Shown here piece after piece: positions 43,963 to 64,000 of a DNA stretch of 64,000 bases; position 1 is the stretch's first letter; every line of letters begins with the position of its first letter. Where the stretch lies: NCBI GenBank assembly GCA_964016885.1, contig OZ024760.1:11966001-12030000 (forward strand), read 5' to 3'. The position numbers and the translations under genes are program-made. The notes below the pieces were generated by a model. The model did no database searches. It was given only the letters and a program-made list of their open reading frames with translations, and had not been told where the DNA came from. This DNA comes from Eledone cirrhosa (Eukaryota).

Positions 43963-44161
43963 TCGTTCGTCTCGCATTATAAATTGCTAACAATTCTTTC
44001 AGAATAACATTACAAATATAATGTCGTTGATTTAAACATTTTCTTTTTCTATTAACTCCTTCTAAATTTACTTGTACAAAATTCCTGCAAATATGTGAAA
44101 AAACAAAACAGAGTGATGTGTCAGACATATGATGATTCCTTTTCATTTACTAATAAATAAT

Positions 44162-44208
<47 letters not shown>

Positions 44209-44699
44209 GTTTCTACTTTAGGCACAAGGCCAGCAAATCACCGAGTGTATTACCGGTACTATATTTTATCGACATAATGTATATATATATATATATGAGC
44301 ACTCTCTATATCCACGTGTCCTACACAATTTTGTGTCATCAACGTCAGTCGGTATGGTGAATTAACTGTTGTGTAACCACATATCTATATATATATATAT
44401 AAATGAAAGGTATATATATATATGTGTATATATATATATATAAATGAAAGGTATATATATATGTGTGTGTATATATATATAGAGAGAGATAGATATGCAT
44501 ATGTATATACATGGTGCCCCCCCCCCCCAAAAAAAAATATATACACACTTTGATTACCTGTACAGGCAATATTTATTAGAATGCTGTTAAAGTGTGTATA
44601 CATTTTGTGGGGACACCATGTGTGTAGATATATATATATCATCATCATCATCATCATCGAAAAGAATAGTTAGAAATGCATATATATATATATATAATG

Positions 44700-44734
<35 letters not shown>

Positions 44735-46568
44735 TATTGAGAGAGAGAGATTATTTAATAAAATAATGAGCTTTCCCGGCGATAAATCATTCCGAATTTA
44801 TAGATAAATTATATACAATATATATTGATTATGTACCGTGAACGGTGATTGCTATCTACAAAACCTTCGAAAGAAAAGTTTCTATAATCGATATTTTAAT
44901 GACAATATTTACTTTGTTGTAATAAAAGTAATCTAAATAGATTTCCTTAACTCGTTTGTAACTCGGTATAAAAATATAACATGTTATTTAAATATCTTAA
45001 TATTGTTTCTGGTGTTGTTGAAAAGTCCTAAGAAGTTGGGGAAAATTAATTTATGAGATACATCCACAAATTTGTTAAGAATATTAGCAATACAACTAAT
45101 ATAAACAAAACATTGGCAGTGATAATTGTTTCTACTTTAGAAACTGAACTAAAATAGACGGAAAGAGTCAAAGATCTGATATTTATACTACAAACTCTGC
45201 TCTTTATCTGAATGTAAAGCCGAGGAAACCCCACATAGATAAAATAAGTCTTTTAGTTTTTTAATGACTGTCTCCGAGGACATAAATAATTGTTTGTACT
45301 ATAGGAACAAAGTCGATTAAATTGACTCCAGTGCGTGACTGGTATTGTATTTTATCGACTTCGTAAGGATGACAGGCAAAGCTGACATAAAAATGGTCTC
45401 TGATTTAAGCACAAGGCCAGCAATCCCCAATTGAGACCAGCGAAGCCCATGGATGTTATTCAACGATCTAGCTCTTGAGATATACTCATGGGTCTCCTGC
45501 CAGTTGGTTTTGGCTGTAAAATCTGTCCAGCGATTCTTTCCTGAGACATTCTAACCACATGTCCACAGTATCAGAGCTATGATCTCTCAATTCTGAGAAG
45601 TAACAGCTCTACATGGAGTGACTCTCTGATCTCTGAGCTACAAATCTGTCGTCATTCTTTCCTGAGACATTCTAACCACATGTCCACAGTATCAGAGCTG
45701 TAATCTCTCAATTCTGAGAAGTAGCAGCTCTACCTGGAGTGACTCTCTGCTCTCTGAGCTACAAATCTATCCAGTGATTCTTTCCCGAGACATTCTAACC
45801 ACATGTCCATAATATCAAAACTGTGATATTGATTTGGAGAAGTACCAATAAAACATCATTTATTATAATTTTCTGTGAGAACTTTTGTTATTTTCAAAAT
45901 ACTGACTTCATTATGAGAAACATTTTTTACTAATTCTTGTTTTCTTTATTACCTGAAAATCATAAATTGTCTTTCATTAGAAACATGGTAATGAAAGGGG
46001 TAAAGTATTTATATTTATCTAGCAACCTTCCATCATAATTTTATGCAAGAACCTTTGTTATGTTCCAGCTTCATAAAAAGAAAATTAGTTGTTTACTAAA
46101 TCCCTCCAAATTCTTGAATTTTTCATTAGGAATATAGAATTAAAAGGGCTAAAGTGTTTATATTTATCACAAAAGACTTAACCCTTTAGCATTTATATTA
46201 CTCTATATATACTATTATATTTTCATGGTAAAGGATTTACTTCACATAATATCAAATCTATTAGATTTTGATATTATTTATTTTGAGAACAATACCTTAA
46301 CATCAGTATGAGCAGCTGGTTTGAACAGAAAGAGGTGAGAGAATTCTGGCTGGATATGGCCAGTTTAAATGCTAAAGTGTTAAACTTAATATATCCTTAT
46401 TTGTATGACTGTTAACTAAATCTTTACTAATGATATGTACCAAAACTAAATGTTGAATTTTTAATCTTGACAGTTTCTATAAAGAGGAACTCTCTGGAAG
46501 CTGAATATTCCTTAACCAAATCAAGTTTTGTTAAACGAGAGGAACACTAATTTGAAATATACCAGTTT

Positions 46569-46601
46569 ATGTTGAAGCAAGACAATTTTGATTTAAAAAT
46601 G
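46569..46601 (+). CDS. POT1: POT1 first coding exon part (MLKQDNFDLKM; start may instead be the ATG at 46599)
   Basis: In-frame TAA at 46548 upstream; AAAATG|GTAAGT phase-0 donor fits the next exon; acceptor TTGACAG ends at 46473. Confidence 0.6.
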
Positions 46602-49600
46602 GTAAGTATATTTTTTTTAAATTCTTCCTAGGGATGCAGATGTATCCCCTTTAAGGAAGGAGCCCTAAGAGGTGGAATGGCTGGTATGGTGGATGTGCTG
46701 GTTGTTTTCTGTGGTAATGTTTTCACCGGCATGAGATGTCTCAGTCAGCTAAGGAAAAAGTTTTCCTCCTCCTCCTCCTATTTCTTTTTCTTTGCCCACT
46801 TTTTTTCCTGAGAGGGTCGTGAAGGCAGCCCTCTTCCTCAAACACTCCTTCCAGCTGATCCTGTCAGAAGCAACCAACTCCAACTGATCCGACTGGATCT
46901 CCAAGCAAGACCAGCCGAGTTCATGGATGTTATCCAACCATCTTGCGCTCAGGGTTTACTACTGGGTCTCCTGCCAGTTGCTTTTTACCCGTAAAGTCTG
47001 TCCAGCGATTCTTTCCTGAGACATTCTAACCACATGTCCATAGTATCAAGAGCTGTGATCTCTCAATTCGAGGAAGTAGCAGCTCTACCTGGAGTGACTC
47101 CCTGATCTCAGAGCTACACATCTTATCAAGTAACGTTACTCCAAAGACTCTTTGGAGAATCTTCCTTTCGGAAGCTTGTTTTCGTGACTGTATTCTTTTG
47201 GTCATTACCCAAGATTCACGACCATAGGTAAGGCTTGGCACAAATAAAAAGTATTTCATTAGAAATATTTATAGAACTACAAATGATGGTGTCTGTGAAG
47301 GGGAAGTAAATCTTAAAACGAAATGGAGACGGCCTGCATGGATTATTTCCCTTTGATCGTTGGTGAACTCTGTAGAAGTTAAGATCGAACGACACCAAGT
47401 CGGTCGTTCGACATAACAAAAATTTAAAAAATCAGACATATTTCTCATCTCGTTTATGATACTATAATAAAACATTGCCAATGAAAAACAACGAAGAACG
47501 AGTAAAATATAAACGTAAATATTCTCTATTTCCCTGGCAGACGATAGTTATGTGTGTGTGTGTAGGTATATGCGTTTGTATGTATGGGCTTGCTTTGCAA
47601 TGTGTGTGTGTGTGTGTGTAGGCATAAGTGTTTGTATGTATGTGAATGCTTTACCATGTGTGTGTATGTGTGGATATTTGTTTGTATATATATATATATA
47701 TATATGAACGTTTTACCATGTGTTTGTATATATGTGAAATGAAGTGTTTTGCTCAAGAACACAACACACGACCCAGTCCAGGACTCGAACCCACAACATT
47801 ATGATAGTAAGTTCAACACCCTTACCACTGAACCATGTTCCTCTGCTAGCAGAACAGGGAAGGCAGACATTGAATGTTAGTGACAATGCCCTTCCTAGAA
47901 TCAATATTCTTGGTTTCCCCTTACATCATCCAGAGATATATAATGTGTTTGATATTAAAACATTTCTTCTAGTATATTATAAATATTGCAGATTTCCATG
48001 TTGAAAATTTTCCCCTTTTTCTTTCATTTTTTTTTGTAGAGAAAAAGAATCCCAGACAACTGCTTGCGATATCCACCTTTGATTACTTTAAAACCTGACA
48101 GTATTGTTGATGTTTATGGGATTGTGAAGTTTTACAAGCTAGCAATAAAAACCAGGGGCACTGGTAAGTTGATGGTAATATTTTTCTTGTTGTTAACCCT
48201 TTCCCTACCAAACCTATGAGAAAAATAGAAAAGTTATATATTTAATTAGAAAGTGAACAACACAAAATATAACTACTCCATTACCAAAGGTTTCTGGATC
48301 CCAGACAACAATAATATACGTCTGGATTGGTCGTCAGATATGTTATGGATAAAAAAAATATGAAATGAGATTTAAAATCTGTTAAAAATTGGAAAGGAGG
48401 CTGATTCTATACATGGAGCACTCTTTTTTCCTTCGGAATTACCTAACATATATAATATATAAATGAAGTAATTCCGTCGGAAATGTCCAGGAAAAAAGAG
48501 TGCTCTATGTAGGTAACAGAGCTTAATAGTTATGTAATAAACAACATAAGGCAATTATTCCATTTACCAGTGGTTTCTTAAAAGAAACCACTGGTAAATG
48601 GAATAATTGCCTTATGTTGTTTATTACATAACTAAATATATAATATATATATATATTTAATATTGAAATGGCTTCTACAGGACTAGAACTGTTTCATTCG
48701 AGAGAAATCATCAGGAAGCCTTGAGGATTTCTCCCAAATGAAACAGTTCTAGTCCTGTAGAAGCCATTTCTATATCAAATATTTATACTCTGCTACATAT
48801 TGAGTACCTTACTTACTGTGGTTACCCCCGATTGAACCTGGGATTAACATATATGTGTGTGTGTGTGATGTCTACTCATTAGAGCTTAAATCCCGCTGAG
48901 GTTAACTTTGTCTTTCATCCTTACAAGGTTGATAAAATAAAGTACCAGTAATTTACTGGGGTCGATTTAGTCAACTTTCCCTTCCCCTTCGAATTGCTGG
49001 CCTTGTACCAAATGTAGAAACAATTATTATTATTAATCGGTGGATTGACAGTATCGTTAGGGTGTCTGACACCATGCTTTGCAGCATAGAGTCACATCCC
49101 TTTACCTTCTGAGTTCAAATCCCGCCAAGATTAGCTTTGCTTTCATCCTTACGGAATTGATAAAATAAAAGTACCAGTAATACACTGCGGTCGATTTAAT
49201 TGACTTTCCCCTTCCTCTAAATTATTGTTCCGATTCTATTCCAGATTATCTGAAGATTGTGACAATTGTTGATCGATCTCTGATTGATATTGAAAGAAAG
49301 TTAAAATGTTTAATATTCGCCCGTGACGAGGACAATTTGCCCAAGGTCCAAATTGGTAGTGTGATAAGATTCCATAGATTACGGGTAAATATTACATTTT
49401 TTTCTCTTTCATAGAACTTTTTTTTTATGCTTTATGAGTGAAATTTAGTAGACAGAAACTGTGTGGAAGTCTGTTGTGAGTGTGTGTGTGTGTGTGGATT
49501 GAGTATGCAAGCGAAAAGTGAAAAAAAAAAAAAAGAACAGCCTACCAGATATTTATACGTGGTTAAGGGAGTTATATATATACTGCTGTGAAATGCCAAG

Positions 49601-52600
49601 AAATCCCAGTAGAGGAAGACCACGAAAAACATGGGCGGAGGTGGTGAGAGCTGAACTCAGATCGCTGAAGCTCATGGCGGAGATGACAAAGGACCGTGAC
49701 AAATGGAGAGATGCTGTGCTGAATAGGACCCATCCTACCCTTGCAAGCAGGGAAAAGCGGACGTAAAATGATGATGATAATGTAAATACTAAAGGATTAA
49801 CATGTTATCAAAATTAATCTTTATTTTCTCCAGGTAAATCTACATAATGATGAGTTACAGGGAGTTAGCGGCCATGGATTCTCCTGGTTGGTTGTTGATG
49901 GCCAAATTGATGGTTGTATGGTTCCAAAAACTTCCTCTGTTAATTTTACATTTACAGATGCTGACAGAAGAAAGGTGAGTTTATCATGATTGTATTTTAC
50001 CTGCATTGGATTTTTTTTTTAAGTTGTAACTTTGGTGAAAAAAACAGGTGAAAACATAGTTTTTTCACCTGTGTAGATGGGCTGATTAACCTCATTTGTA
50101 ATTTGTATATGGAGCTGTGTAAGTTAGCTCAACTTGAAGGTAGAATTAAAATTTTAGCTCCGACATAGCTGTATACATACAAGTGAATTTCATATATCTA
50201 ATGATATATGGCATGTTTAATAAATAAATATTTGGAAAGCCCTCCAGCTACGAATATTAAAAGCTGACATCTAGCGCCGTCTACTGGATTCCAGCAGAAG
50301 CAATGGGGGACAACTGTCAATGTATATTTCAGGCTCTGGCCATCAACAGGACAGTGCTTCCCTTGCTCTCTGCTGGAACTTGAAACAGGCAAAAACATAG
50401 TTTTTTCACCTGTGTAGTTGAGCTGATTAACCTCATTTGTATATGGGGCTGTGTAAGTTGGCTCAACTTGAAAGTAGAATTAAAATTTTAGCTCCGACAT
50501 AGCTGTATCAAATGTCTTTCATTAGAAATGGAGTAATGAAGGCATTAATTAAGATAGTGCAAAAGAACATAGTTAAAGGTGTGCTTCCAACTAAGATACT
50601 GAATGTTTCTGTTCTGTAGATTGCAGAAATGCTTTGGATTGTAGCACAAAATGAAGAATTTCGGTGCGTTGATATGGTAAAATCACTGAACCAAATCCAC
50701 GAAGGAATATATTTTGATTTTATTTGCCAGGTAAGTTGGCTTCTTCATATTGGGGTATTTTTTTTAATGGAATTTACAACGAATCTTCCATGAAAGATGA
50801 TGTCATCATCATCACCACTGCCATCATAATCATCATCATCATCATCATCACTGTTTAAGGTCCATTTTCCACCTTAGCATTGGTTTGACAATCACTCAGA
50901 CTCAGGAGCTCCCGTGTCTTGCGTCGCATGAGGCAATCATAGTGTTCCATCGCGTTCGGTCAGCAGCCAGTTGAACAGTGTCCCGCCATTGTCTGTTTGT
51001 CGCTCGCAGGTCCCTCTCAACTGTCTGGCCCCAGTTAATTTTGGGTCGCCTTCTCCGTCTGCTTCCCTGCGGGCTCCATTTAAGTACTTGGTTCGCCAGT
51101 CTCTCCGGGGGAAGTCTCAAAGCGTGTCCAAACCAGCCCAGGCGTCGCTTGCAGATGGCAGAAGAGACGAGCTGATGGTTGGTGCGGTTCCTGACTTCCT
51201 GACAATACACTTGTTAAATATGAACTTATTTAACAAGTGTAAATACATTTTTATATTTCACTCTGGTGGCAAATTGGCTGAGTCATTAGAATATTTGTGA
51301 TATCTGTTCCAGCTCTCTGTGTTCTGTATTGAATTCCCACCAAAGTCAACTTTCATTCTTCCGTCATCATCATCGCTGTTTAACGTCCATTTTTCCCTGC
51401 TAGCATGGGTTAGACGAGTTGTCCCTTTGTGATACAAATCAGGTCAGATGACCATGTCTTGCTCACACAGAACTTTTTCTGGCTTGGTTTCTATGGCAGG
51501 ATGCCCTTCCTAATATCAACCACATTTACAGTGTGGGCTGGGTTCTTTCTATCATGGCAACAAGAAGACCACTTTACAGTGTGGACTGGGCACTTTTTGG
51601 CATTTCACCTACACAACCACTTTACAGTGTGGACTGGTCGTTTTTGTTGTGACACCTACATGACCACTTTACAGTGTGGACTGGTCGTTTTTGTCGTGAC
51701 ACCTACATGACCACTTTACAGTGTGGGCTGGGCACTTTTTGTCGTGACACCTACATGACCACTTTACAGTGTGGACTAGGTACTTTTTGTCGTGACACCT
51801 ACACAACCACTTTACAGTGTGGACTGGGCACTTTAACCATTGAAAGAGGCAGTCCAATTTGTGGGGCTTGTTCTTGTTGCTGTCCCAGTTGCATTAAGTA
51901 GGGAGGTGGTTCTGTATTCGGTTAATAATATTTACTTGTCAAACTATTCTATTTGACATTTCTAATGAAATATTAATTGTGATTTTTTAAACATTTTAGG
52001 TTGTGGCTGTAGCTTCTGTTGAAGAAAATATATGTTTCTTAGTTCAAGCCTGGGATGGAACTAAATCTTCTTAGTAAGTAAAACAATTGTTCTTTTATCT
52101 CTTTCATCATCATCATCATCATCATCACCCAAGCGAGACCAGCCAAGCTCATGGATGTTATCCAACCATTTTGCTCGGGGTCTACCTCTAGGTCTCTTGC
52201 CTGTTGGATTTGTCCGGTGATTCTTTCCTGAGACATTCTAAGCTCATGCCCTCCATAGTATTGGAGCAGTGATCTCTCAATTCGAAAAAGTAGCATCTCT
52301 ACCTGGAGTTACTCTCTGATCTCCAAACTGCGCACTCTATTGAGTAACGTTACTCTAAAGACCTTTCGGAGGAACCCCATTTCGGCTGCTAGTATTCAGG
52401 GACATATTCTTCCGGTCATTACCCAATATTCATGACCAGAGGTAAGGGTTGGCACAAATATCGAATTGAAGATGGTGAGTTTTGCTTTTACACCTCCCTC
52501 TCTTCTTCTGATTACAGGTAATGCAGAAAATATATGTTTTATATTTTCAGTGAACAAGGTGTACAAGATATTGTGATATCAAAATATATACGGCTCTTTT

Positions 52601-55600
52601 TATACTTTCAGTTCAATATACAGGGTGGCCACAAAAACATTCCTTGATTTCAAATACTTATAATATGAAAACTTAAATGAATATTCTTACAATATTGGTG
52701 GCTACAGTTGCATAAACGTACAAAGTTTCATGTTTGATATTATAGACACACAATGTGGGCCCTTTCTGTTGCTCGGCAAACACCAATGTGATAATGAAGC
52801 TCGGAGTGTTTTTGTGTCGGACTGTATACAGTTGATGCAGAAAATATGTTTTATATTTTCAGTGAACAAGGTGTACAAGATATTGTGGCCTCAAAAATAT
52901 ATTATGTCTGTTTTATACTTTCAGTCCAATATATGAAATAGAGGCTGAACATAAGCAGCTATTGTTGGATGCTGAGTTAAATTTAATAGAAGTAGCCAAG
53001 AATTGGTTGGTTGACATCTGTATTTTCGATGATCATTATAAAACAGCCCAAGTATTAAAGGTTCGTTGTGTGTTTTAATCCTTTTAACTTCAACATTTTA
53101 ACCAGTAAACTACATCCCTTCACAATAATTGTAACGAAAGAAGAGTTAAATAATTATTAAATATATCATCATCATCATCATTGTTGTCACTGTTTAACTT
53201 CTATTTTTCCATGCTAGCATGGGTTAGATGAGTTGCCCTTTTGCGAGACAAGCCAGGTCAGATTATGATGATATATATATATATATATATCATCATCATC
53301 ATCACCATCACTGTTTAACGTCCATTTTTCCATGCTAACATCGGTTAGACAAGTTGCAGATTATGATGATATATATATATATAGTAATAATTTATGTGAA
53401 GACTAAAATCCGAAGGAGGCTCGATAAAGATTATATATATATATATATAACAAAAAATCCAAACCCATGCAAGCTTGGAAGATGGACGTTAAACGATGAT
53501 GATGATGATGATGATAAAAACCCGTAGAGCAAATATTTATTATAAGAACAGATTAAAGTTTAAGCACTTTACAGTGTGGCCTGAGGATTTTTTGTTGTGA
53601 CACCTCCACGACCACTTTACAGTGTGGACTGAGGGATTTTGTTGTGACACCTCCACAACCATTTTACAGTGTGGACTGAGGGCTTTTGTTGTGACACCTC
53701 CACAACCATTTTACAGTGTGGCCTGAGGGCTTTTTGTTGTGACACCTCCACGACCACTTTACAGTGTGGACTGAGGGCTTTTGTTGTGACACCTCCACAA
53801 CCATTTTACAGTGTGGCCTGAGGGCTTTTTGTTGTGACACCTCCATGACCACTTTACAGTGTGGCCTGAGGGCTTTTGTTGTGACACCTCCACGACCACT
53901 TTACAGTGTGGCCTGAGGGCTTTTTGTTGTGACCCACCTCCACGACCACTTTACAGTGTGGCCTGAGGGCTTTTGTTGTGACACCTCCACAACCATTTTA
54001 CAGTGTGGCCTGAGGGCTTTTTGTTGTGACACCTCCACGACCACTTTACAGTGTGGACTGAGGGCTTTTTGTTGTGACCCACCTCTATGACGACTTTACA
54101 GTGTGGACTGAGGGCTTTTGTTGTGACACCTCCATGACCACTTTACAGTGTAGCCTGAGGGCTTTTTGTTGTGACCCACCTCCGTGACCACTTTACAGTG
54201 TGGACTGAGGGCTTTTGTCGTGTCACCTCCACGACCACTTTACAGTGTGGCCTGAGGGCTTTTTGTTGTGTCACCTCCACGACCACTTTACAGTGTGGAC
54301 TGAGGGCTTTTGTCGTGTCACCTCCACGACCACTTTACAGTGTGGCCTGAGGGCTTTTTGTTGTGACACCTCCACGACCACTTTACAGTGTGGACTGAGG
54401 GCTTTTTGTTGTGACCCACCTCTATGACGACTTTACAGTGTGGACTGAGGGCTTTTGTTGTGACACCTCCATGACCACTTTACAGTGTAGCCTGAGGGCT
54501 TTTTGTTGTGACCCACCTCCGTGACCACTTTACAGTGTGGACTGAGGGCTTTTGTCGTGTCACCTCCACGACCACTTTACAGTGTGGCCTGAGGGCTTTT
54601 TGTTGTGTCACCTCCACGACCACTTTACAGTGTGGACTGAGGGCTTTTGTCGTGTCACCTCCACGACCACTTTACAGTGTGGCCTGAGGGCTTTTTGTTG
54701 TGTCACATCTGATAAAAATCATTATTTTATTTTGCAGCCAGGAATGTTTATAAAATTTTACAATCTCCATTGCGCGGTGCACAAAATTACAGAGGATTCT
54801 TCGAGAAACCCACAATATGTTGACCAGCTGGAACTGGTTCTCCACCGAGGAACCTCGTATGGACGAGGTATTAAGATTCTTTCAGAAACAGATGAGGAAG
54901 TAGAAGGCATTAAAAAAAAACTTGAGAGGTTAGCCAAAAAGGAGAGAAATGCAGCTGCAGCTACTGCTGCATCTGCAGCTGCCACCACCACATCTGCAGC
55001 TACCGCCTCCACATCTGCAGCTACCGTCACCACATCTGCAGCTACCGCCACCACATCTAGAGCTGCCACATCTGCAGCTACCGCCTCCACACCTAAAGCT
55101 GCCACCACCACATCTGTAGCTACCGCCACCACATCTGCAGCTACCGCCACCACATCTAGAGCTACCGCCGCCACATCTGCAGCTACTGCCACCACATCTG
55201 TAGCTACCGCCACCACATCTAGAGCTACCGCCACCACATCTAGAGCTACCGCCACCACATCTAGAGCTACCGCCACCACATCTAGAGCTACTGCAGCTAC
55301 TGCCACCACATCTAGAGCTACCACCACATCTAGAGCTACCGCCACATCTGCAGCTACCGCCACCACATCTAGAGCTACCACCACATCTGTAGCTACCGCC
55401 ACCACATTTAGAGCTACCGCCTCCACACCTAAAGCCACCACATCTGCAGCTACCGCCTCCACACCTAAAGCAGCCACCACCACATCTGTAGCTACCGCCA
55501 CCACATCTAGAGCTACCGCCACCACATCTAGAGCTACCGCGACCACATCTAGAGCTACCGCCACCACATCTAGAGCTACCGCCACCACATCTAGAGCTAC

Positions 55601-58600
55601 CGCCACATCTGCAGCTACCGCCACCACATCTAGAGCTACCACCACCACATCTAGAGCTACCACCACATCTGTAGCTACCGCCACCACATTTAGAGCTACC
55701 GCCTCCACACCTAAAGCCACCACATCTGCAGCTACCGCCACCACATCTAGAGCTATCTACGCCACATCTGTAGCTGCTGCCTCCACACCTAGAGCTGCCA
55801 CCACATCTGCAGCTACCGCCACCACATCTAGAGCTACTGCCACCACATCTGCAGCTACTGCCACCACATCTAGAGCTACCGCCACATCTGCAGCTACCTC
55901 CGCCACATCTAGAGCTACCACCACATCTGTAGCTACCGCCTCCACATCTAGAGCTACCACCACATCTGCAGCTACCGCCACCACATCTAGAGCTATCTAC
56001 GCCACATCTGTAGCTGCTGCCTCCACACCTAGAGCTGCCACCACCACATCTGCAGCTACCGCCACCACATCTAGAGCTATCTACGCCACATCTGCAGCTG
56101 CTGCCTCCACACCTAGAGCCTCCACATCTAGAGCTACCTCAGCCACATCTGCAGCTACCACCACCACATCTGCAGCTACCGCCTCCACATCTGCAGCTAC
56201 CGCCTCCACATCTAGAGCTACTTCCGCCACATCTAGAACCACCGCCACATCTACAGATGCCACCACACCTGCAGCCACTGCATCTGCAAATTCAGATTCT
56301 TCACCAAATTTCACTCGGAATGGTGTTGCTGTTACAGGTACAACTTTCTTCCCTTAACGCTCTCAAGGGCGATGACACACGACCGTGACCTCTGGTGTCA
56401 CGCAGTAATACAGAGTACCCGACCTCCCATGGGTACAAGCTGAAGCATATAGACAATATGCCCCCACACCCCCCACTGTAAAGTGGACGTGGAGGTGCCA
56501 CGGAAAAAAAGCACCCAGCACTCACTGTAAATGAGGTTGGTGTTAGGAAGGGCATCCAGCTGTAGAAATCCAGCCAGAATCAGTTCCCATATGAGCAAGA
56601 CATGGTCAGCCGACCAGGCACTGCCCACAACAGGACAACCCGTCTAACCCATGCTAGCGTGGAAGAACGGACGTAAAACGGTGATGATGATGATGATAAT
56701 GTTTGAGTTGTATGATGGTGATGCTGACAGCAGTGTGTGTCATCATCATCACTGGTTTACGTCCGTCCTTCCACGCTAGCATGGGTTAGACAGGTTGTCC
56801 TGTTGTGGGCAGTGTCCAGTCGGCTGTCCTTGTCTTGCTCATACGGGAACTGATTCTGGCTTGATTTCTACAGCTGGATGCCCTTCCTAACACCAACCTC
56901 ATTTACAGTGAGTGCTGGGTGCTTTTTGCTGTGGTGCCTACACGTCCACTTTATAGTGTGGGCTGGCTGCTTTTTTGCAGTGGGAGAGGGTGGTGGCATA
57001 TTGTCTATATGCTTCAGCTTCGGCTTGTACTCATGGGAAGTCGGGTACTCTGTATTACTGCGTGACACCAGAGGTCACGGTCGTGTGTCATCGCCCTTGA
57101 GAGGTGCAATTGCGTGTATATATATATATCAGAGTTTTGTAGCTTGTTTGAAGCATTGTTGAATAGGAAACACAAATTTGAATAATTTTGAAAACCAAAC
57201 AATGCGTTAGAAAGAAAATTAAATCGCTAAGATAAGAAAAAAATCTTAACAAATTTAATGATCAGAAATATTTTCGGTTTTAAAAACCTGTTATCAAGGG
57301 AGAGACCCTGAGAGACTTAAAAGATCGATTGGAGTTGACTTGCTTGTTTGGAGAGCAGATTTAATTTTCTTTCTAACGCATTGTTTGGTTTTCAAAATTA
57401 TTTAAATATATATATATAATAGAAATAGTGGGCTTTAGAACCCTCTAAGAAATGGAAAAAGATGAGTATTGACATAGAGGGGAGTTGAACCCACATCTTT
57501 GGTTATCCCGACCACTGTACTACCATTACATCAACATATCTAAATTCCGAGAAGTTGCGGCTCTACCTGGAGTGACTCTGATCTCCGAGCTACGCACTCT
57601 ATCAAATAACGTTACTCCAAAGACCCTCGGAGAAACCCTATTTCAGCTGATCCTATTTGCGATCATATTCTTTTGGTCATTACCCGAGATTCACAACCAT
57701 AGGTAAGGGTTGGACTCTCTATTATGAACACCTTTTCCAGCACAGAGACATCCATAAATATGATGATTAGTTCTCTATATTTTATATCACAGGTGTGAAT
57801 ATAAAGACAGAAGTGGAGTGCCACGCCGATTATCAAATACATTTAGGAAACAATACCACTGAATCAGTTTTATCTGCTGCCACAGGTAATTATTTTAACG
57901 AATTTTGTGTGATCTGTGAATAAAAAAAGTTAAATACTTATTATTTTGAAGAGTTATAAATGGATGTTATCTTACCATCTTGTTCAGGGTCTGCTCCTGG
58001 GTCTCCTGCGGGTTGGTTTTGCCCGTAAAATCTGTCCAGCGATTCTTTCCTGAGACATTCTAACCACATGCCTGTAGTATCGGAGCTGTGATCTCTCGAA
58101 TCTGTCCAGCGATTCTTTCCTGAGACATTCTAACCACATGCCTGTAGTATCGGAGCTGTGATCTCTCGAATCTGTCCTGTGTTCTTTCCTGAGGCATTCT
58201 AAGGACAATTGCAATTATGAAATTTCTTAAATTGAATTGTTTTCTCTGTAATTCCAGTTATTAGAGGCCACCAGTCTATCAGTCGGTCCCAGTTGTCTGA
58301 TATTATTAACTCCAGTGTTCCAAAGAAGTTCCGTCTTTCAGCCAGAGTTCTCAACTATTGTCCAAAACTTAGCAGCGTCTCAGATTTTTTGAGTCTGTAT
58401 TGTCCCAAGTGTAATTATTTGTAAGTATTTACTTTATAATTACCTACTTATAGTTCTAATACCGAAATATCAATTGGTTTTGTGGTTAAGGTGCTGGGCT
58501 TACGATCATAATGTCGTGGGTTTGAATCCTAGGTGGCATGTTGTCTATATATTTCTATAAATAACCAGTCGTCAATATATCTCTACAAACACTGTCTATA

Positions 58601-61600
58601 TATCTCTACAAACATTATCACTGCTGTCTATATATCTCTACAAACATTATCACTGCTGTCTATATATCTCTACAAACATTATCACTGTCTATATATCTCT
58701 ACAAACATTAACACTGTCATCAATATATCTCTACAAACATTATCACTGCTGTCTATATATCTCTACAAACATTATCACTACTGTCTATATATCTCTACAA
58801 ACATTATCACTGCTGTCTCTATATCTCTACAAACATTATCACTACTGTCTATATATCTCTACAAACATTATCACTGTCGTCAATATATCTCTACAAACAT
58901 TATCACTGCTGTCTATATATCTCTACAAACATTATCACTGCTGTCTATATATCTCTACAAACATTATCACTACTGTCTATATATCTCTACAAACATTATC
59001 ACTGTCTATATATCTCTACAAACATTATCACTGTCTATATATCTCTACAAACATTATCACTGTCTATATATCTCTACAAACATTATCACTGTCTATATAT
59101 ATCTACAAATATTATCACTGCTGTCTATATATCTCTACAAACATTATCACTGTCTATATATCTCTACAAACATTATCACTGTTGTCTTTAGAACAGCAAT
59201 AAACAACTATAAAGTAGACCAGTCGTCTTTTGTTATTAAAGATTGTGTTGAATGTTACCGGTGTCCCTATTGTGCTACAAATAACAACTCTGGTGGTAAG
59301 TTATCACACATTATTAAACCTTTCGTTAACTATATTGCTAATGAATTACATGCACTACATTTTATTTAGCTCTTTACTATTTACATTACTCTATATATAC
59401 TATTGTATTTTCACAGTAAAGGCTTTACCTCATATAATATCTCACATAACATTTACATTTCTCTATATATACTATTGTATTGTCACAGTAAAGGCTTTAC
59501 CTCACATAATATCTCACATAACATTTACATTTCTCTATATATACTATTGTATTATCACAGTAAAGGCTTTACCTCATATAATATCTCACATAACATTTAC
59601 ATTACTCTATATATACTATTGTATTATCACAGTAAAGGCTTTACCTCATATAATATCTCACATAACATTTACATTACTCTATATATACTATTGTATTGTC
59701 ACAGTAAAGGCTTTACCTCACATAATATCTCACATAACATTTACATTACTCTATATATACTATTGTATTTTCACAGTAAAGGCTTTACCTCACATAATAT
59801 CTCACATAACATTTACATTACTCTATATATACTATTGTATTGTCACAGTAAAGGCTTTACCTTACATAATATCTCACATAACATTGACATTACTCTAGAT
59901 TTACTATTGTATTTTCACAGTAAAGGCTTTACCTCACATAATATCTCACATAACATTTATATTACTCTATATATACTATTGTATTGTCACAGTAAAGGCT
60001 TTACCTCACATAATATCTCACATAACATTTACATTACTCTATATATACTATTGTATTGTCACAGTAAAGGCTTTACCTCACATAATATCTCACATAACAT
60101 TGACATTACTCTAGATTTACTATTGTATTGTCACAGTAAAGGCTTTACCTCACATAATATCTCACATAACATTTACATTACTCTATATATACTATTGTAT
60201 TGTCACAGTAAAGGCTTTACCTCACATAATATCTCACATAACATTTACATTACTCTATATATACTATTGTATTGTCACAGTAAAGGCTTTATCTCACATA
60301 ACATTTACATTACTCTATATATACTATTGTATTGTCACAGTAAAGGCTTTACCTCACATAACATTTACATTACTCTATATATACTATTGTATTGTCACAG
60401 TAAAGGCTTTACCTCACATAATATCTCACATAACATTTACATTACTCTATATATACTATTGTATTGTCACAGTAAAGGCTTTACCTCACATAATATCTCA
60501 CATAACATTTACATTACTCTATATATACTATTGTATTGTCACAGTAAAGGCTTTACCTCACATAATATCTCACATAACATTTACATTACTCTATATATAC
60601 TATTGTATTGTCACAGTAAAGGCTTTACCTCACATAACATTTACATTACTCTATATATACTATTGTATTGTCACAGTAAAGGCTTTACCTCACATAATAT
60701 CTCACATAACATTTACATTACTCTATATATACTATTGTATTGTCACAGTAAAGGCTTTACCTCACATAATACCTCACATAACATTTACATTACTCTATAT
60801 ATACTATTGTATTTTCACAGTAAAGGCTTTACCTCACATAATACCTCACATAACATTTACATTACTCTATATATACTATTGTATTTTCACAGTAAAGGCT
60901 TTACCTCACATAATACCTCACATAACATCTACATTACTCTATATATACTATTGTATTTCACAGTAAAGGCTTTATCTTACATAATATCAAATCTATGAGA
61001 TTTTGATATTTATTTTGAGAACAATACCTTAACATCAGTATGAGTGGCCAGTTATATATATGTGTGTGTGTTCATATATATAGTAATATATGATAATGAT
61101 GATGATATATGTGCCTCAACGAAACCTCACAGAATATTTGTAAAAGCCTACATTGTTTTTATTTTACAGATTTTCAAGTTCTAGAATATACCTTCCTGTT
61201 GAAGTTTATACTAACTGATGGTTTACATTACATCATTGCCAACCTTTGGAGAGCTGAAGCTGTGAGTTGACTTTAGACTTTTATACTTAGATCATCTCTC
61301 TACATTGTCTTCTTGTTCAGGGAGTTAATCTACGGGGTGGGTGGCAGGCAGATGAGATATAGAAGAGATTGCGAGGAGAGCAGGGCAAAGGGCAGAGAGT
61401 CAATCCATGATGTGGGTGACAGGCTGATGAGATATAGAAGAGATTGAGAGGGTAGCAGAAAGTTAATCCATGTGATGGGTGACAGGCCAATGAAATATAG
61501 AAGGGATTGAGAGGGGAGCATCATCATCATCATCATCATCATCACCACTTTACATCTGCTTTTCCCTGCTTGCAAGGCTGGGACGGGTCCTCTTCAGCAC

Positions 61601-62296
61601 AGCATCTCTCCATTTGTCACGGTCCTTCATCATTTCCTCTTTAAGCTTCCACCCAGGGCAAGGAAAAGCATTTAGGCGCACATAAGTGACTGGAAGAAGG
61701 AAATAAAGAATGGGCTTCTTCTTTGCCCATTTAATCCTGAGAGGGTTGTAGGGGCAGAGTCCTCAAAGACTCCTTCCAGAAGGTCCTGTCAGAAGCAATT
61801 ATCTCCAACTGATCCGCCTCTACATTGTCAAATAGGATTAAATTATTATTATTATATCATTTGGCGATGGTTTGGCAGAATTGGTAGAACGTCGGACACC
61901 ATGCTTTGTGGCATGTGTTTACAGCCCTTTATGTTCTGAGTTCAAATCACACTGAGGTCAGCTTTGCCTTTCATCCTTACAGGGTCTATAAAATAAAGTT
62001 TATAACGAAATATTTTAAATATTTTAGTCTCCAGTTTATAACGAAATATTTTAAAGATTTTCTGTTTATAATAAAATATTTTAAAATTACAGGTGAAATT
62101 CTTCAACAACATAACTCCACTGGAATTTATAAAGAGTACAGCAAACATGGAAAGGGTTCAACAATGCCTGAACAAAATCCACATCTGTAATGGAGACAAC
62201 CATCACTTGCCTGTAATAGAATGTTGCATCAAGTCTTATAATGGACGTAACTCAGTCTGTTATCAGATGTTCGATACAGTTGTTAACCTGCAGTAG
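46569..62296 (+). CDS. POT1: Protection of telomeres 1 (OB-fold telomeric ssDNA-binding shelterin subunit), whole spliced CDS, 13 coding exons, ~1004 aa including a long Ala/Thr/Ser repeat
   Basis: OB1 (VDVYGIVKFYK..RGTDY; IRFHRLRV), OB2 (YFDFICQ, AWDGT, IFDDH, LHRGTSYGRGI), OB3 (KFRLSARVLNYCP, CPKC, FILTDG, IECCIKSY..CYQMFDT); all junctions GT-AG in phase (3015 nt). Confidence 0.93.
46790..47245 (-). mobile_element. RTE LINE 3' fragment; same family at ~8535-8690, 38415-38665, 45440-45830, 52125-52490, 57545-57712, 57960-58200
   Basis: PSLTYGRESWVMTKRIQSRKQASERKILQRVFGVTLLDKMCSSEIRESLQVE...ERSQL, frameshifted. Confidence 0.85.
47735..47840 (-). mobile_element. CORE-type tRNA-derived SINE fragment
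   Basis: tRNA-like head TGGTTCAGTGGTAAG...GGTTCGAGTCC followed by CORE-like TGTGTTCTTGAGCAAAACACTTCATTTCAC. Confidence 0.65.
48040..48163 (+). CDS. POT1: POT1 exon (RKRIPDNCLRYPPLITLKPDSIVDVYGIVKFYKLAIKTRGT)
   Basis: TTTTGTAG/GTAAGT; OB1 start. Confidence 0.92.
48527..48634. repeat. Perfect inverted repeat, 53-bp arms, 2-nt loop
   Basis: 48527-48579 is the exact reverse complement of 48582-48634; the arm is related to the element end at 37905-38005. Confidence 0.95.
49245..49384 (+). CDS. POT1: POT1 exon (DYLKIVTIVD...KLKCLIF...IRFHRLR)
   Basis: TTCCAG/GTAAAT; OB1. Confidence 0.93.
49834..49974 (+). CDS. POT1: POT1 exon (VNLHNDELQGVSGHGFSWLVVDG...FTFTDADRRK)
   Basis: TTCTCCAG/GTGAGT; OB1 C-terminal part. 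Confidence 0.93.
50620..50730 (+). CDS. POT1: POT1 exon (IAEMLW...GIYFDFICQ)
   Basis: TCTGTAG/GTAAGT; YFDxxCQ marks the OB2 start. Confidence 0.92.
50900..51210 (-). mobile_element. RTE-clade LINE 3' fragment (second family)
   Basis: RRLGWFGHALRLPPERLANQVLKWSPQGSRRRRRPKINW...AADRTRW. Confidence 0.88.
51500..51835. repeat. ~48-bp module amplified ~7x inside a SINE copy
   Basis: ACCACTTTACAGTGTGGACTGG..TTTTTGTCGTGACACCTAC units following GGATGCCCTTCCTAA. Confidence 0.85.
52000..52073 (+). CDS. POT1: POT1 exon (VVAVASVEENICFLVQAWDGTKSS)
   Basis: TTTTAG/GTAAGT; WDGT motif. Confidence 0.92.
52621..52824. mobile_element. Tc1/mariner-type MITE with TA target duplication
   Basis: TA|CAGGGTGGCCACAAAAACATTCC ... 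GGAGTGTTTTTGTGTCGGACTG|TA imperfect TIRs. Confidence 0.7.
52925..53060 (+). CDS. POT1: POT1 exon (PIYEIEAE...WLVDICIFDDHYKTAQVLK)
   Basis: CTTTCAG/GTTCGT; VDIxxFDDH motif. Confidence 0.92.
53565..54706. repeat. 47-50-bp minisatellite (~24 copies) from the SINE internal module
   Basis: GACCACTTTACAGTGTGGMCTGAGGGCTTTTGTTGTGACACCTCCAC; ends ~30 bp before the POT1 acceptor. Confidence 0.95.
54738..56337 (+). CDS. POT1: POT1 long exon: OB2 end (PGMFIKFYNLH...LHRGTSYGRGIKIL) followed by ~445-aa Ala/Thr/Ser/Arg repeat
   Basis: TTTGCAG acceptor; 1600-nt open frame; CAG|GTACAA donor supplies the phase 1 needed by the downstream exons. Confidence 0.8.
54951..56288 (+). repeat. Coding minisatellite (~21-bp core, A-T-A-T-T-S-R/A/V) in the POT1 exon
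   Basis: GCTACCGCCACCACATCT(AGA/GCA/GTA) units with only 3n indels. Confidence 0.95.
56360..57103. mobile_element. Two tail-to-tail inverted copies of the composite RTE/SINE element (56360-56697 +, ~56740-57103 -)
   Basis: CTCTCAAGGGCGATGACACACGACCGTGACC... and its reverse complement ending at 57103. Confidence 0.88.
57793..57885 (+). CDS. POT1: POT1 exon (GVNIKTEVECHADYQIHLGNNTTESVLSAAT)
   Basis: TCACAG/GTAATT; phase 1-1; ends in SAAT just before the OB3 start. Confidence 0.8.
58258..58420 (+). CDS. POT1: POT1 exon (VIRGHQSISRSQL...KFRLSARVLNYCP...LYCPKCNY)
   Basis: TTCCAG/GTAAGT; OB3 start with first CxxC. Confidence 0.93.
58575..59182. repeat. 29/32-bp minisatellite (~20 copies) running into the POT1 acceptor
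   Basis: CTGTCTATATATCTCTACAAACATTATCA(CTG). Confidence 0.93.
59192..59295 (+). CDS. POT1: POT1 exon (TAINNYKVDQSSFVIKDCVECYRCPYCATNNNSG)
   Basis: CTTTAG/GTAAGT; phase 2-1 links the flanking exons; second CxxC. Confidence 0.85.
59375..60985. repeat. 72-bp minisatellite (~23 copies, some 60 bp) expanded inside a TTAA-MITE
   Basis: ACATTACTCTATATATACTATTGTATTGTCACAGTAAAGGCTTTACCTCACATAATATCTCACATAACATTT; continues into the MITE core at 60985-61052. Confidence 0.95.
61170..61261 (+). CDS. POT1: POT1 exon (DFQVLEYTFLLKFILTDGLHYIIANLWRAEA)
   Basis: TTTTACAG/GTGAGT; LxYxFxxxFxLxDG OB3 motif. Confidence 0.92.
62093..62296 (+). CDS. POT1: POT1 terminal exon (VKFFNNITP...IECCIKSYNGRNSVCYQMFDTVVNLQ*)
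   Basis: TTACAG acceptor; ECxIKSY...CYQxFDT is the conserved POT1 C-terminus. Confidence 0.94.
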   Translation: MKFFNNITPLEFIKSTANMERVQQCLNKIHICNGDNHHLPVIECCIKSYNGRNSVCYQMFDTVVNLQ

Positions 62297-64000
62297 AAAT
62301 TGTCACATCTTATATAAAGGTAACCATAATAAATTCATGAAAGGTGGGGGCCGGGGTTGGAATTGGCAGAATCGGTAGAGCGTCGGATAAGTTCTCAGCT
62401 GTATTTAATTTTGGTTGTTCAGTTTCTGAGTTCAAATCCCGCTGGTGTCAGCTTTGCCTTCCATCCTTATGGAGGGGTTCGATAAAATAAAGTACCAGTC
62501 ATGTACTGGGGGGTGATATAATTAACTTTTCCCTCTAACCCCTCAATTGCTGGTCTTGTAATCCATGTTAGAAAAAAATTACAAAATTAAAGTACCATTG
62601 AAGCACTGGGGTGTTCTATAATCGACCCCCATCCTCCCCTATCCTCTCTCGCCTTGTGCTTAACCCTTTACCATTCACAGTACTCTATATATATACTATT
62701 ATATTTTCATGGTAAAAGCTTTACCACAATATCGAATCTATGAGATTTTGAAAGTATTTATTTTGAGAACAATACCATAACATCAGTATGAGTGGTTTGT
62801 TACAGCCAGTTTCAACAGAAAGAGGTAGAGAATGCTGGCCGGTTTGAACATTAAAGGGTTAAATTAGAAATCATAACTTCCTGAGGGGCGCGATGGATTC
62901 ACAGACGAGATCGTTAAAGCGTGAGACAAGATCTTAGTGCCATTCGTTCTGGATTTTAACTTTCCGAGTTGAAATCCCGCCGAGGTCAACTTTGTCTTTC
63001 GTTCTTCTCCACGGTCAATAAAATAAAGTACCAAAATTGCTGGTCCTGTGCCTATGTTAGAAACCATTAACCCTTTACCATTTACATTACTCGATATATA
63101 CTATTGTATTTCCATGGTAAACACTTTACCTCACATAATATCAAATCTATGAGATTTTTATTTTGTTTATTTTGAAAACAATACCTTAACATCAGTATGA
63201 GTGCCCGGTTAAGCCGGTTTAAATGCTAAAGGGTTAAAACTTCATGACAACTTCAACAAAGAGAACATTAATAGTTAAGGTTTCTACAAGCTATTGTACT
63301 CTTCCTTTCATTTTCTTTTTTATATCTCCATAAAACAAGGGCATTTTTTTTTTTCTGTATATATTTAAACTGGTACCTGTCATGATGGGGGCAACAGTTT
63401 TTTAATGTAAATACTATAAATAAATAAAGATCAACAAATAAAAAATTCAATTCACAAAGCCTGCATCTTGTTCAAATGATTTGTGATTGTGTATGTGTCC
63501 AAACACTGTATATATAATATTAAAAAAAAGTAACGATTTGAGAAATGGGAAATAAAAGAAATATATATTTTCCTATATCATCGTCATCATTGTTTAACGT
63601 CCATTTCTCCATGCTAGCATGGGTTAGACGTGTTGTCCAGTTGTGAGACAAGTCAAATCAGGTGACAGTGTCTTGTTTAGCTCACACAGAACTGATCCTG
63701 GCTTGGTTTCTAAAGCTGGATGTCCTTCATAACACTAACCGCATTTACAGTGAGTACTGGGTGTTTTTTGTCGTGACACCTACACAACCACTTTAAAGTG
63801 TGGACTGGGCACTTTTTGTCGTGACACCTACATGACCACTTTACAGTGTGGACTGGGCACTTTTTGTCACATCTCACAATTAATAATTTTAGTATACCCT
63901 CCAAATTCTTCATTAATTAATTAGAATGCAGAACACGCTTTAAAGTGGTTGCTTTTCGGAAGGGCATCTAGCCAGAAACTACACCAAAATAGAATGTATG

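Follow-up and report, generated by a model that had tools for sequence, protein, structure and literature searches.

The 64-kb window analysed here (contig OZ024760.1 of the octopod Eledone cirrhosa, assembly GCA_964016885.1, positions 11,966,001 to 12,030,000; coordinates below are those of the window) carries on its forward strand, at 46599-62296, the gene for the telomere protein POT1, the only POT1 locus found in the 3.0-Gb genome. The OB1 profile and the DNA of the 5' part of exon 8 each match the genome once, and the six matches of a full 776-residue ortholog all fall at this locus. The gene model comprises 13 coding exons, whose 12 introns all have GT-AG ends, and has an intact 994-residue frame with a single terminal stop and a predicted mass of ~104 kDa, in keeping with the POT1 of about 1000 residues envisaged by a first-pass annotation made from the sequence. 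That annotation had placed a long repeat, retained in frame, between the second and third OB folds. Over 309 aligned N-terminal residues the predicted protein is 62% identical to Octopus POT1, and over its C-terminal part 58-61%.

The repeat lies in coding exon 8 (54738-56337, 1600 nucleotides (nt), forward strand), which has 533 codons without a stop, whereas the other two forward frames contain stops, and which encodes the end of OB2 (recovered by its profile), the last OB2 helix, the repeat and a Ser/Asp tail. The repeat itself is a 21-bp minisatellite at 54951-56288 (1338 nt, 446 codons, model residues 315-760) made up of 65 units: 48 of 21 nt, 11 of 18 nt, four of 15 nt, and one each of 30 and 42 nt. 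None of the 63 anchor spacings departs from a multiple of three. The encoded segment contains 163 Thr, 151 Ala, 71 Ser and 31 Arg (234 Ser plus Thr, 35 Arg plus Lys, and one acidic residue), with seven STP[K/R] motifs, the number counted earlier, 12 RxxS/T motifs and no S/T-Q site. The earlier description of the tether as basic holds for the sign of its charge, although this is modest (+34 across 446 residues).

Contigs from four sequencing runs of one study (X1-X4), none of which is on record as RNA, were placed on 44000-63999. Depth in the interior bin of the array is 18.5-22.5 in X2-X4, a magnitude typical of single-copy contigs, whereas the flanking bins reach thousands or more, and a 28-nt core pattern has six exact matches in the genome, all inside exon 8. 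The array is therefore a local expansion, and its derivation from a dispersed repeat can be rejected. Identical stretches of up to 98 nt recur at offsets of 240-330 nt, a pattern indicative of recent block duplication, and the differences between units are mostly residue-changing, as is expected if constraint is relaxed.

Spliced contigs at both ends of exon 8

The first-pass annotation had taken the open frame, together with insertions and deletions in multiples of three, as a sign of coding. This argument fails against controls in the same window, where three of ten other minisatellites are stop-free over nearly or all of their length in some frame. A trap for a reading based on open frames is a 72-bp minisatellite in intron 11 (59379-60988), which is stop-free over all 536 of its codons and shows no off-frame spacing among 36, and yet is spliced out in one of the X1 contigs (record 3, below), thereby providing a clean internal control. 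An open frame with triplet spacing is for such arrays no more than chance would give, so that the frame argument needed support from outside, which came from the spliced contigs.

X1 yielded spliced contigs, and was judged to be RNA-like from their splicing alone. Two of them, records 1 and 3, agree with the exon model to the base. Record 1 joins 49244-49383, 49833-49972 and 54736-55006 and is spliced across exons 3-8; it passes the donors at 54867 and 54928 unspliced and continues 78 nt beyond the latter into the array. Record 3, which joins 56153-56333, 58255-58420 and 62093-62508, starts within the array and exits at 56337; a single one of the eight donor/exon combinations fits it, namely donor 56337 followed by a 93-nt exon and then exons 10-13. 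Scored with a matrix built from POT1's own 12 donors, 56337 included, the donors at 54867, 54928 and 56337 reach 0.8, 5.2 and 5.8. As had been claimed, 54928 is of phase 2 and runs into a stop with either candidate for the next exon, and 56337 supplies the phase 1 that is needed downstream. The view of 54928 as the sole good-looking donor before the array is borne out by its score, but overlooked the weak, in-frame, phase-1 donor at 54867. The array is accordingly entered from both ends by spliced contigs, its tandem in-frame units forming part of a spliced exon at either end, and we infer the same of its middle. Retention of the whole of exon 8 is the simplest reading of these data, and on the one run a highly probable one. 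Origin of the spliced contigs from a retrocopy is unlikely, as every genome match falls at the POT1 locus.

Remaining exons and family membership

Coding exon 1 (46599-46601) consists of an ATG that closes a mostly untranslated exon and is followed by gtaagt. It is presumably the start used: it places the first OB1 strand at residue 24, comparable to residue 25 in Octopus and 24 in Argonauta. A second in-frame ATG lies ten codons upstream, and a stop precedes that one. Coding exon 2 (48040-48163, OB1) was assigned from its AG/GT ends, frame and protein likeness to Octopus POT1; both exons are absent among the listed contig pieces. Exons 3 (49245-49384) and 4 (49834-49974), also of OB1, correspond to the first two pieces of record 1, the latter with frame support. 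Exons 5 (50620-50730, OB1/OB2), 6 (52000-52073, OB2) and 7 (52925-53060, OB2) measure 111, 74 and 136 nt, making up exactly the 321 nt that separate the listed pieces of record 1, and the last two are also delimited by AG/GT ends. The acceptor region of exon 7 is spanned by a 110-nt duplication (52512-52619 and 52826-52932, 87% identical), which creates a decoy acceptor ~310 nt upstream. Downstream of the array, exon 9 (57793-57885, 93 nt, phase 1-1) encodes the C-terminal hinge, is required by the coordinates of record 3 and could be skipped in frame. Exon 10 (58258-58420), with the first half of OB3 and the first CxxC pair, is covered by record 3 and by a genome match to the ortholog. Exons 11 (59192-59295, with the short OB3 insert and the second CxxC) and 12 (61170-61261, with the second half of OB3, likewise matched by the ortholog) measure 104 and 92 nt, exactly the 196 nt separating the listed pieces of record 3. 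Exon 13 (62093-62296) runs to the stop, and the contig continues to 62508 in the 3' untranslated region. The downstream exons had all been claimed for OB3; this is correct from 58258 onwards, while exon 9 is still hinge.

The assignment to POT1 is borne out by profile matches to OB1 (PF02765, 31.9 bits against a cut-off of 29, window 49244-49387, unique in the genome) and to OB2 (PF16686, POT1PC, 30.9 bits against 27.2 on exon 8 alone, exon residues 1-67), by a split OB3 with two Zn-binding CxxC pairs (CPKC in exon 10, CPYC in exon 11), and by the likeness to Octopus. The OB-N domain of most metazoans is absent, with OB1 beginning at residue 24 and an in-frame stop upstream; none of the six genome matches of the 776-residue ortholog, obtained in a stricter kind of search, covers its first 200 residues. 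As human POT1 also does without OB-N, membership of the family stands. The domain is said to be missing only in primates and rodents, in the passages of PMC8653790 available to us. The present model (46474-48163) and the cephalopod orthologs checked (P0003, P0005, P0007, P0016, P0018 and P0019) have 24-61 residues before the first OB1 strand and hence no space for OB-N, so that from these predicted proteins an independent loss in cephalopods is possible. Two Haliotis records likewise begin near OB1, one of them being marked partial. The vertebrate HJRL insert in OB3 is absent and only a short insert is present, which is expected for invertebrates, whose POT1 is described as lacking HJRL and having a variable OB3 insert (PMC8653790, in part). 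Among possible partners, a TPP1 family search gave zero matches in the genome and zero also in its controls, and CTC1 is matched above the cut-off (38.3 bits). With regard to the comparison proteins, the annotated POT1 of Octopus bimaculoides (P0018, 365 residues) stops soon after OB2 and lacks OB3, so that its gene model is probably incomplete or represents a read-through isoform, while two echinoderm predictions (P0012 and P0013) have apparent duplications of OB1 (Amphiura) or OB2 (Anneissia) segments.

Hinge length and composition among POT1 proteins

The hinge was measured as the stretch separating two profile anchors, one where OB2 ends and one where OB3 begins, in 91 of 157 other, non-redundant proteins, the 66 without one of the anchors being dropped. 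It measures 516 residues here, as against 96 and 46 in two isoforms of Octopus sinensis, 107-113 in cuttlefish and further relatives, 379 in Argonauta hians and ~56 in human, the last counted from an alignment. The median of the 91 is 65 residues; 13 exceed 200, nine exceed 300 (Argonauta, seven gastropods and one further record), and two are longer than 516. The contrast drawn earlier with the short vertebrate linker makes the long hinge look unique, which in length it is not. What sets the Eledone hinge apart is its composition, with an entropy of 2.67 bits compared to at least 3.36 in all 91, and a Ser plus Thr fraction of 0.48 compared to at most 0.31. Judged from these predicted proteins, the POT1 hinge is hypervariable in length, and the unique feature of the present one is its young, low-complexity minisatellite origin rather than its length.

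The nearest POT1 records, those of Octopus sinensis (XP_029650132.1 and XP_036368409.1) and O. vulgaris (CAI9739756.1), share the order OB1-OB2-hinge-split OB3, the two CxxC pairs and the absence of HJRL, and differ in the hinge. Long hinges at the same place (310-815 residues) are predicted in Argonauta hians (GAB1610721.1), Aplysia, Elysia, Plakobranchus, Biomphalaria, Physella, Babylonia and Candidula; these are of ordinary complexity (entropy at least 3.79 bits, Ser plus Thr at most 0.31), are mostly net acidic and have no common repeat. The Argonauta hinge is also Ser/Thr-rich and internally repeated, with its own ~55-residue repeat that was missed by plain self-BLAST and recovered by an off-diagonal scan (score 211, against a maximum of 72 in 100 shuffles). 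A common origin of this hinge with the Eledone array was rejected, since its score is reached by 145 of 200 shuffles and the likeness is of composition only; the two expansions thus look independent. When the 3' end of exon 8 was compared with the corresponding Octopus exon end, the best local match, whose score was reached by 17 of 1000 shuffles, lay astride the boundary between exons 8 and 9. The 50-residue cassette by which the O. sinensis isoforms annotated as X1 and X2 differ, located at the same place as the symmetric exon 9, matches that exon weakly (score reached by 71 of 1000 shuffles). Splicing may thus be a further source of variation in hinge length.

Outside POT1, in-frame tandem units rich in Thr, Ala and Ser within one large exon are known from the PTS domains of mucins and from the Thr-Ala-Ala antifreeze glycoproteins. 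These are secreted and O-GalNAc-glycosylated, whereas the present array sits inside a nuclear protein; inspection of its model N-terminus, a short basic segment followed by OB1, revealed no signal peptide. Closer in function is the disordered, Ser-rich linker of another shelterin subunit, TPP1, which differs by hundreds of residues between metazoans (50-700 residues; PMC8653790, in part), with no mention of a minisatellite origin in those passages. More generally, shelterin linkers are described as differing widely between organisms (PMC9351484, in part). Neither long POT1 hinges nor the span of 46-815 residues predicted in molluscs is described in the accessible portions of either paper, and no publication dealing with POT1 in cephalopods or with a POT1 hinge expanded by repeats was found by a literature search beyond whose reach most subscription papers lay.

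Interpretation of the lengthened hinge

These observations confirm what the first-pass annotation had seen and partly support the meaning it attached to it; the length polymorphism, the phosphate or O-GlcNAc modification and the effects on shelterin reach or condensates that it also envisaged are hypotheses. We consider the best explanation, with a probability of roughly 0.6, to be a locus-specific in-frame minisatellite in exon 8 of the only POT1 locus found, likely giving a 994-residue POT1 in which a 446-residue loop, predicted to be disordered, lengthens the hinge between OB2 and OB3 and is tolerated, probably near-neutrally. The array would have arisen by slippage and unequal crossover of units just after the last helix of OB2, the frame being kept because the units are built of triplets. 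By analogy with human POT1, OB1 and OB2 would bind the telomeric overhang, the split OB3 would bind TPP1, and the C-terminal hinge, with exon 9 intact, would fold back onto OB3. The position of the array directly after the last OB2 helix leaves the Ser/Asp tail and exon 9 beside OB3, so that the repeat could loop out as a longer flexible tether with the core job of the protein unchanged. In human POT1 the DNA-binding module is flexibly tethered to OB3/TPP1, and truncation of the linker did not lower conformational variability (PMC9351484, in part). The C-terminal hinge there folds back on OB3 to form a surface for CTC1, and the Ser/Asp-rich middle hinge binds CTC1 once phosphorylated (PMC10197580, in the passages available).

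Several points weigh against this explanation. Transcript support comes from one run of one study, whose library type is not on record and whose RNA nature follows from its splicing; contigs drop rare isoforms, and the support they give lies at the level of nucleic acid and not of protein. No placed contig bridges 55007-56152, so that neither full retention nor the precise number of units is seen directly. A gap of this kind is expected, because the first contig break predicted from the assembly's 31-mer graph falls at 55006, the exact end of X1 record 1 and of X3 record 18. X1 moreover contains 0.51 of 119 sampled words, compared to 0.33 of the distinct 31-mers in its two listed pieces, a hint of further X1 cover inside the array. 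The single-sequence fold of the exon 8 product has a predicted local distance difference test score (pLDDT) below 50 for 452 of 533 residues, which is compatible, if weakly, with the disorder proposed earlier, and it includes one helix at 129-188 across a run of identical units. The hinge lengths of orthologs come mostly from gene predictions, and 66 of 157 proteins were dropped. Near-neutrality, too, is something we infer: in human POT1 the hinge occupies a basic cleft of CTC1, and CST binding is switched by phosphorylation of the hinge (PMC10197580, in part), so that a basic insert of 446 residues need not be inert.

For the POT1 hinge, the array amounts to a natural experiment. In the human CST-POT1 structure OB2, the ~45-residue hinge and OB3 all contact CTC1, while here ~450 basic, low-complexity residues lie in the hinge of an apparently single-copy gene, suggesting that the hinge loops out freely or that CST is recruited otherwise. 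The array is a real and likely expressed coding minisatellite, less exceptional than the vertebrate comparison suggested, and should not be masked from the POT1 gene model by annotators.

The array could instead be retained and functional, as a multisite Ser/Thr tether in which phosphorylation (or O-GlcNAc) flips a basic, DNA-attracted state to an acidic, CTC1-attracted one and so tunes CST recruitment or the reach of POT1. In human POT1, CST binding is driven by phosphorylation of the very hinge that here holds the array (PMC10197580, in part), the array's many Ser and Thr residues and its STP[K/R] and RxxS/T motifs offer sites, a CTC1 match is present in the genome, and long hinges recur in molluscs. 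We nonetheless hold this to be rather unlikely, as those other long hinges differ in composition and sequence, close Octopus relatives manage with 46-96 residues, and the array looks young and freely mutating and lacks S/T-Q sites. An extended version, in which an allele-variable phospho/O-GlcNAc tether amplifies the POT1-hinge switch for CST recruitment and the mollusc hinge expansions are adaptive, is less probable still; were it true, an octopod would have its overhang processing and telomere length tuned by a coding minisatellite.

It is similarly improbable that the long form is one isoform among others, with a large share of transcripts dropping the array by way of the 54867 donor, an acceptor within the array or non-canonical splicing. 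The lack of a bridging contig, the loss of rare variants from contigs, the in-frame phase of 54867 with the next exons and the alternative hinge isoforms annotated in Octopus sinensis would all accord with it. Yet 54867 scores poorly, would cut the last helix of OB2 and is read past by record 1. The 89 AGs of the array have at most five T in the -20 to -4 window, compared to 7-13 for the 12 true acceptors. All 149 GT/GC dinucleotides after 55006 and before 56323 are in phase 0, and no AG acceptor in 55007-56337 is, so that a transcript of the record 1 type cannot lose part of the array in frame through any canonical intron; none of the in-frame GT/GC-AG introns sought inside the array fits.

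Least probable is a real array whose assembled length or order, known from one assembly copy, is wrong (collapsed or inflated), or whose two alleles differ strongly: short-read contigs cannot span the array, but its units are heterogeneous (978 of 1570 31-mers single-copy) and ought therefore to be resolved by long reads, the break on the 5' side falls exactly where predicted, the interior depth is unlike that of the flanking repeats, and a wrong unit number would leave the frame intact. At the 3' end of the array, the first piece of record 3 (56153-56333) begins 20 nt before the predicted break (56153 as against 56173) and has one other letter; sample S1 thus differs at least slightly, a weak hint of a different array-end allele. 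About 20 nt past the 56337 donor, at 56360-57103, lies a long inverted pair of a high-copy repeat (83% identical over 780 aligned nt), which could form a duplex in the pre-mRNA and is a candidate for adenosine-to-inosine editing or for an effect on the splicing of exons 8 and 9.

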